Source: Eledone cirrhosa
Taxonomy: Eukaryota
Direction: 5' to 3'
Assembly (NCBI GenBank): GCA_964016885.1
Contig: OZ024742.1
Span: 364,436,001 to 364,500,000, forward strand
DNA length: 64,000 nucleotides
Positions 27,756 through 44,899 of the stretch are shown here, piece after piece. Positions within the stretch are counted from its first letter, which is position 1. Every line of letters starts with the position of its first letter. The notes below the pieces were generated by a model. That model was not told the DNA's origin, did not search any database, and was given only the letters and a program-made list of their open reading frames with translations. The position numbers were made by a program, and so were the translations under genes.

Positions 27756-27803
27756 AACATAACCGGTTTCGATGTATCAGTGTAAACCATCTTATCAAAT
27801 GTT
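27756..27803 (-). ncRNA. Minimal hammerhead ribozyme with U3-A8 core
   Basis: Minus strand: AACAT-TTGATAA-GATG..CATC-GAAA-CCGG-TT-ATGTT. Confidence 0.7.
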
Positions 27804-28182
27804 GAAGATTACAATTAAAAAGGATTAAAGATAATTAAATATAAAAAAAAATTAAATTGAGTGGTGAAAAGGTCTGTTCATCTTTCTTGTTTCAAAGACT
27901 GGCTCTAAAATGGAAACCTTATATATAGAGAGAGGGGGTATACATAGTAGTAGTAGTAGGAGTAGTAGTAGTAGTAGTAGTAGTAGTAGTAGTAGAAGAG
28001 AGGTTGGTAGTTGTGTCTTTTCACTGAACAAAATTATTTTAAATATTAGTCTCAATTGTCAAGAGTTCAGATGGGGATGGCGAAGGGAGGAAATGTAAGC
28101 TAGAGACAATTGCTATAGGGGAGAGAGGTACATGAGTGGGATTGTCAAAAGAAATTCTATTTTAGGAATATTATTTTAGAGA

Positions 28183-28279
28183 GGTTAACTTTGCCTTGCA
28201 TCCTTACGGGGTCGATACAATAAAGTACCAGTAATATACTGGATAATTGCTGGCCTTGTGCCTAAAGTAGAAACAATTA
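28183..28279 (+). mobile_element. SINE family A, 3' half
   Basis: Matches the consensus from GGTTAACTTTGCC to GAAACAATT. Confidence 0.8.
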
Positions 28280-28429
28280 TTTTAGAGAGTATGAGTGTGT
28301 ATATGTGAGTGTGTATATAAACATGTGTGTGTATGTGTGTGTGTGTGTGTGGCATATTGTAAGTGTGATGGGATGAAAACTTAGAGAAATATATTTGGGG
28401 ACACATGTATATATATATATACATGTGTC

Positions 28430-40112: not shown

Positions 40113-40150
40113 CCTTTACCGGTTTCGCAGTTCTGCTGCTTTTCAAAAGG
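40113..40150 (-). ncRNA. Minimal hammerhead ribozyme with U3-A8 core; inverted copy at 43721-43756 has U3/U8
   Basis: Minus strand: CCTT-TTGAAAA-GCAG CAGAA CTGC-GAAA-CCGG-TA-AAGG. Confidence 0.78.
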
Positions 40151-41639
40151 TGAGTTGAGATGGAGGGTCTGTGGTTTTTCTCACATCTGGTTGGTCACTG
40201 AATGTTACTTGTTTTATATGGAAAAAGTGGCTCGAAATGCCAGGTTTTTCGACAAGTAATTTGATTGGTTGGTCAATAATTATAATAAATTTCGCGCCAG
40301 TTCGCGTTACAAAGTTCTTCAAACAAGGGGGGGGGGGTGTCACAGGTTGTGTTTTCATATATGAGTGTTTGAATTTCTTTTTACTTTAAAAAAATGAGGC
40401 TCACGAAGGCTTTTTTTTAAATAAACGTAATTTGATTGGTTATAAATGAAATTATGGCTGTCACGTGAATAAGTTTTCATTAAATTTTCGCGCCCTTATT
40501 TGGAAATCTATTCTGTAGCCTTTTTAGAGAATTTTATGACAAGTAAAAGATAATGGTCAAGAGAAATTGGATGGGAGAATTGTTCTGGTTTAGGGAATAT
40601 GGTTAGTTCGCTGGTGTGTCAGAATTCAGATTTTCTATTGAATAAAGAAAGTAAAGATATGTATGTTTATTTGTGTGCTTGTGTGTGTGTGTGTGTGTGT
40701 GTGTGTGTGTGTGTGTGTGTGTGTGTGTGTGTGTGTGTGTGTGTGTTTGAATTTCTTTTTACTTAAAAAAAGGGGGCTCACGATTTTTTTTTTAATAAAC
40801 GTAATTTGATTGGTTAAAAATGAAATAATGTCTGTCACGTGAACAAGTTTTCATTAAATTTTCGCGCCCTTATTTGGAAATATATTCTGTAGCCTTTTTA
40901 GAGAATTTTATGACAAGCAAAAGATAATGGTCAAGAGAAATGGGATGGGAGAATTGTTCTGGTTCAGTGCATATGGTTAGTTCGCTGGGGTGTCAGAATT
41001 CAGATTTTCTATTGAAGTAAAGAAAGTAAAGATGTGTATGTTTATTTGTGTGCTTGTGTGCTTGTGTGTGTGTGTGTGTATTGGAAGATGATTCTATTAG
41101 TAGAAATGCGGGAGGGCGTTGTGTGTGTGTATATGGGTGGTATGTGTGTGCGTGGGGGGGGGGAGTATGTTAAGATGGAGAGAATATATATATTTTGTGT
41201 GTGTGTATATATGTGTGTAGGAAAGTGATTCTATTAGTAGAAATGGGGGAGGGAGTTGTATGTGTGTGTATGGGTATTATGTGTGTGGGAGTATGGTTAG
41301 CATGTTAAGATGAAGAGAATATATATATATATTGTGTGTGTGTGTGTGTGTAGGACAATGATTCCTTTAGTAGGAATATTTTTGAATGAACATATTTTCC
41401 TTACTTATTCGTATTTGTACTGTTGTATTGTCAGTGCAAACGTATGTTAAGGTTTATTTAGTTCGGGTTTTTATTTTCTAAAGTAGAAGGTGTTATGTGT
41501 GTGTGTATGTATCTGTTTGGATGGTTAGCATGTTATGGTGTTGATATAATGTATATTAAACCATATTTAATGCTGGTCTATATTTTTGAATAAACATATT
41601 TTCCTTATTTATTCGTATTTGTTCTGTTGTATTGTTAGC

Positions 41640-43010
41640 GCAAAGGTAAAATCGGAAGACTTGGAATTTGTGTGGTCTTATTACTTGCGCATATGTCTAG
41701 ATATGCGCTTAGTGGTATCTGTCTCGTGGTTGGATCTCGTAATTGTTGGCGATGAACTGTCATTCTGTTTCTAAGTGTGAGTTTAGTTTGTCCTATATAA
41801 TCTTCATTGCATCCTTTACATTTAATGGCATAAACTAGATTTTTTGATGAGCATGTGAAGTGATTTTTACAGTAAAATGTTGTCCTGATTTAAATGTATA
41901 CGTGTTACCTTCAATGAGGTGAGTGCAGGTTCCACAATTAGAGCGACCGCATTTTCTGACAGTAGGTTGTGGGTTTGTGGTAGGTAATTTGGCATTGGTG
42001 AGTAATGTTTTCAGTTATTTCGGTTGTCTTTTGCTTTTGATTATTTTGTGTATTTCAAGGGCTTTTTTCATTCTTGGGTTTTGTTTTAGTAGTGGGATGT
42101 TCTTGTGAATAGTGTTGTAAGCTTCCGCATTTTTGGGGTTGTGTGTTGAGATATATGATAGAATATTGGACGTACCTCGAATTTGTTTCTGTTTTCGTAA
42201 TTCATCAATGCCTATTGCTTTAGCTCTTTCTATTCCATTATTTATTAGTGGGTACTCTCTTTCGAGTAGAATTTCCTTTAATTCTTGAAGTCTTTTATTT
42301 CGCGTTTCATAATTGGAGGCAATTGTGCAAATTCTTCTTGCTAGGTTAAAAGGAATGTTCGTCTTCGTGTGCTTTGGATGGTTGGAGGTGAATAGCAGGT
42401 ATTGCTTGGAATCTGTTGGTTTGTATTGTATGTCAGTTTCAATATTTGTGTATTTTTTAAAGATTAAGATGTCCAGAAATGGGAGTTGAACTTGGCTGTA
42501 TTCCATTGTGAATTGGATGTGGTTATTGATGCCGTTTATTAAGTTTTTGAAATCCTTCAGTTGGTCGAGTGTGTGGGACCAAAGAATGAGACAATCATCC
42601 AAGTAGCGTTTCCAATTCTCTGATAAATATTTGTGGAAGTTCAATCCGTATTTTGATTTGGACTGTTCATATATCTGGACTTCTAAGTATGCCATGACTA
42701 AGTTGGCATAAGTTGGAGCGGCTTTTGTACCCATCGCAGTCCCCGATATTTGCTTGTAAGTACTGCCATCGAAATCAAAAAAGTTGTTCTGTAAGATAAA
42801 TTTTAATCCCTCGGTGATGAAGCTTTTTTCTATTCTGTTAGGTATCTCATTGGGATATTGCTCTAGCCAGAATCCTATTGCTTCTAGTCCGTATTGGAGT
42901 GGGATCGTTGTGTAGAGATTCACTACATCGAAAGACCCAATAATAGTGTCGTTGTTGACATGTTTGGGGAGGTGGTTTAAGAGGTCCAGATCGTCTCTTA
43001 CATGGCTTGG
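41640..43010 (-). pseudogene. PLE RT + GIY-YIG, 5'-truncated, with in-frame TAA at 42015
   Basis: SFDVVNLYTTIP, QISGTAMGT..APTYANLVM, WKRYLDD, LPFLDI, YKPTD; after the stop KCGRSNCGTC...NLVYAIKCKGCNEDYIGQT. Confidence 0.92.
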
Positions 43011-44899
43011 TATGTGCACAGACACACATAAGCACACAAATAAACATACATATCTTTACTTTCTTTATTCAATAGAAAATCTGAATTCTAACACCCCAGC
43101 GAACTAACCATATTCACTGAACAAGAACAATTTTCCCATCCAATTTCTCTTGACTATTATCTTTTGCTTGTCATAAATTTCTCTAAAGAGGCTACAGAAT
43201 AGATTTCCAAATAAGGGCGCGAAAATTTAATGAAAACTTGTTCACGTGACAGCCATAATTTCATTTATAACCAATCAAATTACGTTTATTAGGAAAAAGC
43301 CTTCGTGAGCCCCCTTTTTTAAGTAAAAAGAAATTCAAACACAAACACACACACACACACACACACACACACACACACACACACACACACACACACACAC
43401 ACACACACACACGAGCACACAAATAAACATACATATCTTTACTTTCTTTATTCAATAGAAAATCTGAATTCTGACACACCAGCGAACTAACCATATTCCC
43501 TAAACCAGAACAATTCTCCCATCCAATTTCTCTTGACCTTTATCTTTTTGAAGATCTTTGTAACGCGAACTGGCGCGAAATTTATTATAATTATTGACCA
43601 ACCAATCAAATTACTTCTCGAAAAATCTGGCATTTCGAGCCACTTTTTCCATATAAAACAAGTAACATTCAGTGACCAACCAGATTTGGGAAAAACCACA
43701 GACCCTCCATCTCAACTCTACTTTTGAATAGCAGAAGATCTGCGAAACCGGTAAAGGAACCAAATAATAAATATATATATATTTTTAAAAATAAGACTTC
43801 AGTTGCATTTTCGATTTCATCTTTTTTTGTTTTTGTGTTCTGTTATTAATTCTGGCAATATTACGCAAATATGACCCTCCCCAAGTATAACAATATATAT
43901 ATATATATATATATATATATATATATATATATATATATATATATATATATATATATATATATATGCATATATTATATATATATACTATGATATTAAATAA
44001 ATGGCAACTATATTTATAAAACCATATTTATATATATATATATATATATATATATATATATATATATATATATAGTGTGTGTGTGTGTCTGTGTGTGCAT
44101 TTTATTAATTGAATCCCTCGTTTTTAACGCATATTTATTGTAAGAGGTGGTTGTGGGAGATGTGCCTTTCTTCTATTAATAATATATAACAGTTTCCAAG
44201 TTTTGGTATCTTGAGTAATTTTATTTCCATTATTTCATTATATTGTCATTTATTATATATTTTCGTTAAAAACTCTCTCAATGCTACCAGAACGCCTGAT
44301 GCCTCTGTCGTTGGTGCTTTTTTCTGATCCTCTTCAATGCAGTTAGTATCAATTGCCACGTAACATATTACAGAATATCATGATTGTTATATAGCTACTA
44401 GCTATGAAAAATAGAAACATGCATCATTCTTCCGTAGTTTGAGGCAAATTACTCCCCCCCCCCCTTAAAACATCATCGGCACGCTCCTCTATTGATATTT
44501 CCTACTTCAATGTTTTATTCGGTTGCGCTTTTGTCACTACAAACAACAATTTCTTCCTATATTGTCAGCACTAAATCATAATATATACATATACAGACAC
44601 GCACAAACACACATACACACACACACACAAACAAACAAACACACACACACACACACACACACATACATATATATATATATATATATATATATATATATAT
44701 ATATATATATATATATATATATATATATATATCAATATTTAAGCTCCTCAGGGAAAGAAGCCTAACTCTAAATAAATGAAGGCCTGGAGGAAATTTGATC
44801 GTTATTGTTTCCAAGAAAATTTTCTGAGGCAAATCTGAAAGCTCACTTGAACAACATGATAACGCACTTCTTATTCTCATTCTTGTTATTACTATTATT

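Follow-up and report, generated by a model that had tools for sequence, protein, structure and literature searches.

Probable minimal hammerhead ribozymes with a U3-A8 core pair in terminal repeats of Penelope-like elements from two related families of the octopod Eledone cirrhosa

We analysed a 64,000-nucleotide (nt) stretch of the Eledone cirrhosa genome (assembly GCA_964016885.1, contig OZ024742.1, positions 364,436,001 to 364,500,000; hereafter the window), which is AT-rich and microsatellite-rich and carries Penelope-like elements (PLEs). At issue is a set of short motifs that resemble type I minimal hammerhead ribozymes and in which the core pair between positions 3 and 8, canonically C3-G8, reads U3-A8. 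These motifs fall into family A, with its subfamily A2, and family B. They lie as follows, together with the element to which family A belongs (basis of each assignment in brackets; ORF, open reading frame; pseudo-LTR, pseudo-long terminal repeat).

41556-43016, minus strand: broken, 5'-truncated PLE ORF, the family A parent, with reverse transcriptase (RT), CX4CxxC linker and GIY-YIG-type end (homology)
39876-40323, minus strand: part of the 3' pseudo-LTR of the family A element (self-BLAST, motifs)
43547-43984, plus strand: 5'-terminal, inverted pseudo-LTR copy of the truncated element (86.5% identical in 452 columns, microsatellite included)
40113-40150, minus strand: family A minimal type I hammerhead, intact, U3-A8 (descriptor, shuffles, co-folding)
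43721-43756, plus strand: decayed family A copy, U3.U8, lying in the inverted arm of the terminal repeat (descriptor, self-BLAST)
36419-36468, plus strand: subfamily A2 solo copy, older and decayed (self-alignment)
9688-9735, plus strand: subfamily A2 solo copy with damaged core (self-alignment)
27756-27803, minus strand: family B minimal hammerhead, intact, U3-A8, U17 (descriptor, shuffles, co-folding)
27900-27912, minus strand: CATT-N-GAGCCA motif, common to families A, B and G (motif search)

The ORF at 41556-43016 is 66.5% identical to residues 284-772 of a full-length 772-aa relative. Its match to RVT_1 (E 2.4e-5) lies under the curated cut-off, and 237 longer relatives were found at E<=1e-30, many with both RVT_1 and GIY-YIG. 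The family A element has the layout of a PLE, with an RT followed by a GIY-YIG-type end and with an inverted pseudo-LTR, and an inverted terminal-repeat arm is a known arrangement in truncated PLE insertions (PMC8557442). A CX2-5CxxC linker between RT and endonuclease is described as a Neptune and Nematis feature (PMC8557442). The CX4CxxC linker of the family A ORF thus suggests a Neptune-like parent, with the proviso that Nematis elements carry the linker too and that our tree held no named references. Within the pseudo-LTR, a CCAAT-like box is followed by a motif shared with other families (40228-40239), by TATAAAA (40218-40212) and, about 70 nt behind this TATA-like box, by the hammerhead. 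The motif at 40113 therefore lies on the sense strand, downstream of the RT-endonuclease ORF and inside a PLE terminal repeat, which bears out the first-pass annotation in its reading of these motifs as PLE minimal hammerheads. Family B can be placed in such a repeat indirectly, via the shared upstream motif. Sub-repeats of the terminal repeat, 380 nt long and arranged in tandem, occupy 40330-41080 (minus strand) and 43017-43548; they carry CCAAT-like boxes and GGCGCGAAA motifs that we take to resemble E2F sites.

In the intact family A copy at 40113, a 4-bp stem I, the core UUGAAAA and a 4-bp stem II are followed by GAAA-CCGG-UA, with U3 at 40146, A8 at 40141, A17 at 40117 and a predicted cut between 40117 and 40116; its stem III segment is the palindrome ACCGGU. 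The family B copy at 27756 has a 5-bp stem I, the core UUGAUAA, a 4-bp stem II and GAAA-CCGG-UU. All of its stems differ from those of family A, the ACCGGU palindrome is identical, and its parent ORF lies outside the window. Both motifs show every element of the hammerhead core (U4 G5 A6 N7, A9, G12 A13 A14, A15.1-U16.1, H17 and three helices), and both have the features of the minimal PLE form, being type I with a palindromic 15-16 segment and no stable stem III. A third site, at 36422, had also been counted as intact. It keeps the core UUGAUAA and has CUGG for CCGG, G at position 17, a mismatch within stem I and a stem II reduced to 2 bp beyond a U10.1.U11.1 mismatch, so that two of the three UUGANAA sites stand and this one is decayed. 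The copies at 43721 (U3 opposite U8) and 9691 (U at position 6, hence A6 lost, and CCUG in place of CCGG) are decayed, as had been proposed. A Watson-Crick 3-8 pair, U3-A8, is thus found at 40113, 27756 and 36422, and the CCGG palindrome, described as present in most of the five sites, is exact in three. At 9688-9735 an extended stem I contains a pair that is compensated relative to 40113 (ACUU/AAGU versus CCUU/AAGG). The first pair of stem II is G10.1-C11.1 in 40113, 43721 and 27756, and subfamily A2 has U.U there. An extra base between positions 9 and 10.1, which belongs to the consensus of minimal PLE hammerheads (PMC4209133), is absent at 40113 and 27756. Since it is also absent in three of the outside loci described below (L006, L007 and L009) and in two rows of Fig. 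S3 of PMC4209133, this base is, on the sequences compared, not obligatory in minimal PLE hammerheads.

We searched the window with a descriptor of the type I minimal hammerhead that leaves positions 3 and 8 unconstrained. When stems I and II must each reach 3 bp it finds five matches, at 3837 and 7823 (C3-G8), 40113 and 27756 (U3-A8) and 43721 (U3.U8); with stems of at least 4 bp it finds 40113 and 27756 only, both U3-A8. The U-A core at 36422 was matched in none of the three descriptor runs applied to the window. At the 4-bp setting, dinucleotide shuffles of the window in 500-nt blocks gave 0.004 U-A matches and 0.046 matches of any class per shuffle, and none of the 1,594 shuffles reached two U-A matches, so that the proposed excess of U-A motifs over shuffled sequence holds.

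The same five sites had been regarded as unrelated, and this does not survive comparison of their flanks. In self-BLAST of the window, 40113, 43721, 36422 and 9691 with their flanks form one repeat family at 74-87% identity. The remaining site, 27756, has no paralogue elsewhere in the window and carries the same upstream motif, CATT-N2-3-GAGCCA, about 100 nt upstream. This motif occurs four times in the window versus 0.16 expected, each time upstream of a hammerhead, namely 40113, 43721, 27756 and the C3-G8 hammerhead of family G at 30600-30638 (motif at 30728-30740). Because they have it in common, the two U-A families, A and B, and the C-G family G probably belong to a single terminal-repeat lineage. 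The motif was found in none of the 134 outside loci. On this comparison, the U3-A8 sites are two related families, A and B.

Positions 3 and 8 can be followed beyond the window in 134 outside loci, presumably host-derived PLEs, that were collected with an alignment of the window RT and 29 relatives (76 loci on metagenome contigs, from the best 80 of 393 confirmed stretches, and 58 on genome contigs). A strict descriptor finds 33 matches in them (19 C-G, 12 U-A and 2 A-U), compared with 0.16 per shuffle in 119 shuffles. A relaxed one finds 48 matches in 34 of the 134 loci, 47 of them on the RT sense strand, and these comprise 30 C-G, 16 U-A, 2 A-U and no mismatched pairs. Grouped into 31 motif clusters (22 C-G, 8 U-A and 1 A-U), all are Watson-Crick at 3-8. 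The covariation that the first-pass annotation saw across families is thus supported outside the window, which by itself offers only two related families. In an RT tree of 20 rows, the six U-A rows force at least three changes onto well-supported branches, and the approximately unbiased test rejects these rows as a single clade (p-AU 4e-50); gains in this tree look the same as reversals. The family A pattern itself had no match in the genome contigs collection, and of 50 pattern matches of the PLE alignment in viral contigs none was confirmed.

Several observations on the outside loci stand by themselves. An A3-U8 minimal PLE hammerhead (L072:1568 and L074:2665, plus strand) sits, within its assembly, amid sister families that have C-G and U-A cores. 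Two C3-G8 motifs with a stem II of apparently 2 bp only are unmatched by the descriptors (GAAA at L001:3772 and L008:2573). A TATA-like box lies 33-47 nt upstream of position 3 in 17 of the 47 sense-strand matches, the distance in family A being 72 nt, which suggests that hammerheads often follow closely on the transcription start. Contigs binned as bacterial genomes (L077-L134) encode PLE reverse transcriptases, some with hammerheads; these are probably carried-over host DNA.

Together, these observations support the idea, which we consider likely, that the motifs are minimal type I hammerheads in the terminal repeats of two related PLE families, that their 3-8 pair has changed from C-G to U-A, and that they would cut weakly and as dimers only, through ACCGGU. 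The ACCGGU self-duplex is worth -8.3 kcal/mol. A monomer would need a 2-nt loop to close stem III, and therefore two copies would have to pair. Co-folding two copies of 40113 gives a dimer topology at -20.3 kcal/mol versus -12.8 kcal/mol for two monomers. Pairing would occur in a tandem transcript or with the help of an element protein, and cutting, which would depend on the partner copy or the protein, would be weak. Short-stem-III, PLE-linked hammerheads have reportedly been found by Lunse, Weinberg and Breaker to cleave as dimers. A dimer-cleavage model for short PLE hammerheads is summarised in PMC6765202. The C3-G8 pair forms in the active hammerhead fold (PMC3884650); U3-A8 would substitute for it, and the pair would be retained since it forms in that fold. 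For the PLE PAc, it is reported that reverse transcription initiates internally, that most insertions are templated by uncut RNA and that cutting by the hammerhead requires added protein (PMC11167929). The solo copies here would be reverse transcripts of uncut RNA that began at the promoter and continued through the motif, and most genomic copies are likely inert by-products.

Same-species data over 40030-40380 (3,087 contigs in run X1 and 2,282 restriction-site-associated DNA (RAD) reads in run X16) give a read depth of about 540-600 over the motif; family A is abundant, though this depth gives no copy number. A6, A7, A8 and A9 show no variant at or above 3% in X1, and this follows because all five tallied plus-strand T changes fall at other positions (40151, 40238, 40280, 40338 and 40340). 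Contigs of two other organisms (runs X4 and X5) span the motif, with no change at position 3 or 8 among those listed. Such uniformity within the family is weak evidence, because recent amplification yields it too. Loose or record ends fall in all four runs at 40185-40189, about 30 nt downstream of TATAAAA, those in X1 and X16 often running into TA-rich repeats, and this places a putative transcription start near 40188. Two solo copies start within about 15 nt of the same point and end 50-70 nt past the cut site, and all four family A copies span that site.

Several points weigh against weak dimer-only hammerheads. Only 40113 among the four family A copies keeps an intact core. Single motifs fold no better than shuffled sequence (z -0.44 and +0.59), and co-folding of 27756 recovers the central duplex and not stem I. 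The relaxed descriptor has no shuffle control of its own, and since one assembly supplies seven of the eight U-A clusters and also the A-U cluster, U-A origins are sparsely sampled outside the window. The RT tree is a quick LG+G4 tree from which 13 of 33 rows were dropped as near-identical or long-branch, and the RT given to each hammerhead is the closest one upstream. In X1, one A>G place is not among the listed rows, so that U3 is not fully cleared, and the variant tally passed over 40030-40117, which includes A17 together with the 3' strand of stem I. Finally, both the monomer and the dimer are predicted to fold with U3 of family A paired to A17, which could trap the motif. This pair, an analogue of the proposed C3-G17 trap (PMC3884650), is the starting point for an account in which the fold is selected for something other than cutting: U3-A17 would extend stem I and shut the motif, and the RNA would act in the 5' untranslated region by binding protein or by dimerising. 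Such an account would fit the copies that all span the cut site, the presence of A17 in three of the four family A copies and in none of the eight outside U-A clusters, and a report that hammerhead mutants of another PLE left in vitro insertion unchanged (PMC11167929). We nevertheless judge it unlikely. Strict Watson-Crick 3-8 pairing is a trait of the active fold, a U-A trap would be weaker than a C-G trap, and family B carries U17 rather than A17; the apparent avoidance of A17 by U3 cores (0 of 8 versus 2 of 22) is not significant because A17 is scarce in C-G clusters as well. It is also conceivable, and we would give it somewhat more room while doubting it, that the 3-8 pair flips repeatedly among C-G, U-A and A-U, also between sister families of one genome, and never to a mismatch because the catalytic fold is selected throughout PLE evolution, and that in family A a U3-A17 self-trap holds the ribozyme off until a partner copy or the element's protein releases it, which would explain the very many promoter-to-tail solo copies made from uncut RNA.

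Selection may also have played no part, if a dead U3-A8 hammerhead was fixed by accident in the founder of one successful element and amplified with it. Four of the five sites are one family, decay has reached most copies, and in this AT-rich genome the changes at both 3 and 8 move towards A or T; recent amplification would by itself make the copies uniform. A shift to A/T alone would, however, leave U3.G8 and C3.A8 families behind, whereas the outside clusters are Watson-Crick at 3-8 in 31 of 31 cases, one of them A-U, with U-A not confined to one clade; and family B combines the same core with wholly different, fully paired stems. We therefore regard a neutral accident as highly improbable. 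Chance matches in AT-rich repetitive DNA, of which the loose descriptor supplies one at 11611-11690 (minus strand, U3.U8; dismissed), deserve next to no credence as the source of the intact motifs, given that no shuffle reached two U-A matches and that the motifs sit in the expected place for a PLE hammerhead, behind a shared upstream motif. Weakly cutting, dimer-dependent U3-A8 hammerheads thus remain the reading that we favour.

Neither the variant nor its large share in another genome is new. Both are published for the Cercyon PLEs of Schistosoma mansoni, whose minimal hammerheads include about 1,300 U3-A8 matches beside about 2,000 canonical ones, after a first descriptor had missed the U3-A8 forms (Cervera and De la Pena 2014, PMC4209133). 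The motifs described here resemble those of Cercyon in being type I, in lying in a PLE terminal repeat, in their unstable stem III and palindromic 15-16 segment, and in both cores, UUGAAAA and UUGAUAA, which appear in Fig. S3 as rows S. mansoni 3 and 4 beside three canonical mollusc rows; in both cases most copies are solo and U-A is a large fraction (PMC4209133). They differ in their octopod host, in their Neptune-like element with a CX4CxxC linker, in a CCGG insert of 4 nt versus 2 nt, in lacking an extra base between 9 and 10.1, in a 4-bp stem II and in A17 in family A. A canonical PLE minimal hammerhead cleaves weakly, and as dimer or trimer only (PMC4209133). Perreault et al. (2011, PMC3088659) describe natural U3-A8 and U10.1.U11.1 forms in other hammerheads, and according to them 3-8 covariants show activity in vitro. 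Our motifs share with these the 3-8 covariation and, in families D, G and A2, a U.U start of stem II; the relevant section of that paper treats hammerheads of all domains of life and leaves PLE minimal motifs undiscussed, and here no tertiary loop contact is evident. The Poseidon element PAc of Anolis likewise has its hammerhead at a terminal repeat, where it adjoins the ORF start, and copying of uncut RNA with internal initiation, as in PAc, would explain the solo copies spanning the cut site (PMC11167929). In contrast to the motifs here, the PAc hammerhead is C3-G8 and assayed; behind 40113 no ORF start was identified, and the motif is known from its sequence. In the literature on hammerheads, Penelope elements and octopus, passages of the two relevant papers listed do not mention the U3-A8 variant, and passages of PMC2920678, PMC6962438 and a 2026 preprint contribute nothing on it.

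Canonical C3-G8 hammerheads serve as comparison cases in the window. The families given at 3837, 10690 and 36688 (plus strand, core at 36696) are present, and the one given at 29981 lies at 29994-30031.

3837-3902 (minus strand), 7600-7665 (minus strand) and 7823-7888 (plus strand): C3-G8 hammerheads of a second PLE (descriptor)
10264-10306 and 10690-10732, plus strand: two family D copies, G3.G8 and C3-G8 respectively, both with U10.1.U11.1
29994-30031, plus strand: family E, canonical core, stem II broken
30600-30638, minus strand: family G, C3-G8 with U10.1.U11.1, downstream of a PLE remnant at 31036-31745 (minus strand)

The second PLE, at 3701-8050, is nearly full-length, with terminal repeats 98-99% identical and a long stem II in its three hammerheads; its ORF pieces (5208-7444, minus strand) carry the RWR and DKT motifs described for the Hydra clade (PMC8557442). 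A GIY-YIG-type remnant related to it lies at 28377-29468 (plus strand). Of 88 pattern matches of its RT in the genome contigs, none was confirmed. A stem II that starts with U10.1.U11.1, together with 4-nt palindromes, recurs in both family D copies, in family G and in three outside loci (L004:2534, L005:1593 and L077:1852), and U10.1.U11.1 appears in rows of Fig. S3 of PMC4209133 as well. Two repeats that are 74% identical, at 32146-32235 (plus strand) and 36822-36914 (minus strand), have the right half of a hammerhead (GAAA, a 6-nt palindrome, UA and ACAC) and an upstream GUGU. Their left core is atypical, with either C at position 4 and a very long stem II or a nearby 5-nt strand, and they may represent another variant or a motif in decay. 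A long A3.C8 parse at 36373-36460 and a match at L123:4749 were dismissed as chance.

The window also holds an exon resembling nicotinic acetylcholine receptor alpha-10 (26181-26840, minus strand), 95% identical to an Argonauta hians protein and at most 40% to the other named molluscs returned, as would be expected of an octopod host. Two adjacent degraded elements of the long interspersed nuclear element (LINE) type occupy 44949-50000 and 50397-55330 (plus strand), with an endonuclease domain (PF03372) at 46952-48088, and several LINE-type 3' fragments lie elsewhere (34733-36159 and 56394-57581). A large inverted duplication at 60407-62311, with 684-nt arms at 94% identity, is made of tandem units of about 67-70 nt.

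It had been proposed that the U-A core causes such ribozymes to go unannotated. Rfam assigned no hammerhead family to 40040-40340 at E<=10 and none to 14 loci carrying 9 C-G, 4 U-A and 1 A-U motifs, and among the 150 listed of 242 matches in the window it gave only microsatellite-driven ones of microRNA type. It thus misses C-G and U-A minimal forms alike, which speaks against the core as the cause; only descriptors with a fixed core (CUGANGA) lose the U-A form specifically, a point also made in PMC4209133. A large U-A share is plausible: two of six families and five of thirteen copies in the window (2 U-A versus 4 C-G families, 5 versus 8 copies, excluding the ambiguous family 32147/36822), alongside the S. 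mansoni counts cited above. In practice, descriptor searches should leave the 3-8 and 10.1-11.1 pairs unconstrained. With the present motifs, the range of this published variant now includes an octopod and an apparently Neptune-like element. Furthermore, the uniformly Watson-Crick outside clusters, with U-A on several branches, provide a small comparative argument that these weak ribozymes are retained for their active fold, and this bears on whether PLE hammerheads have a job or just ride along.

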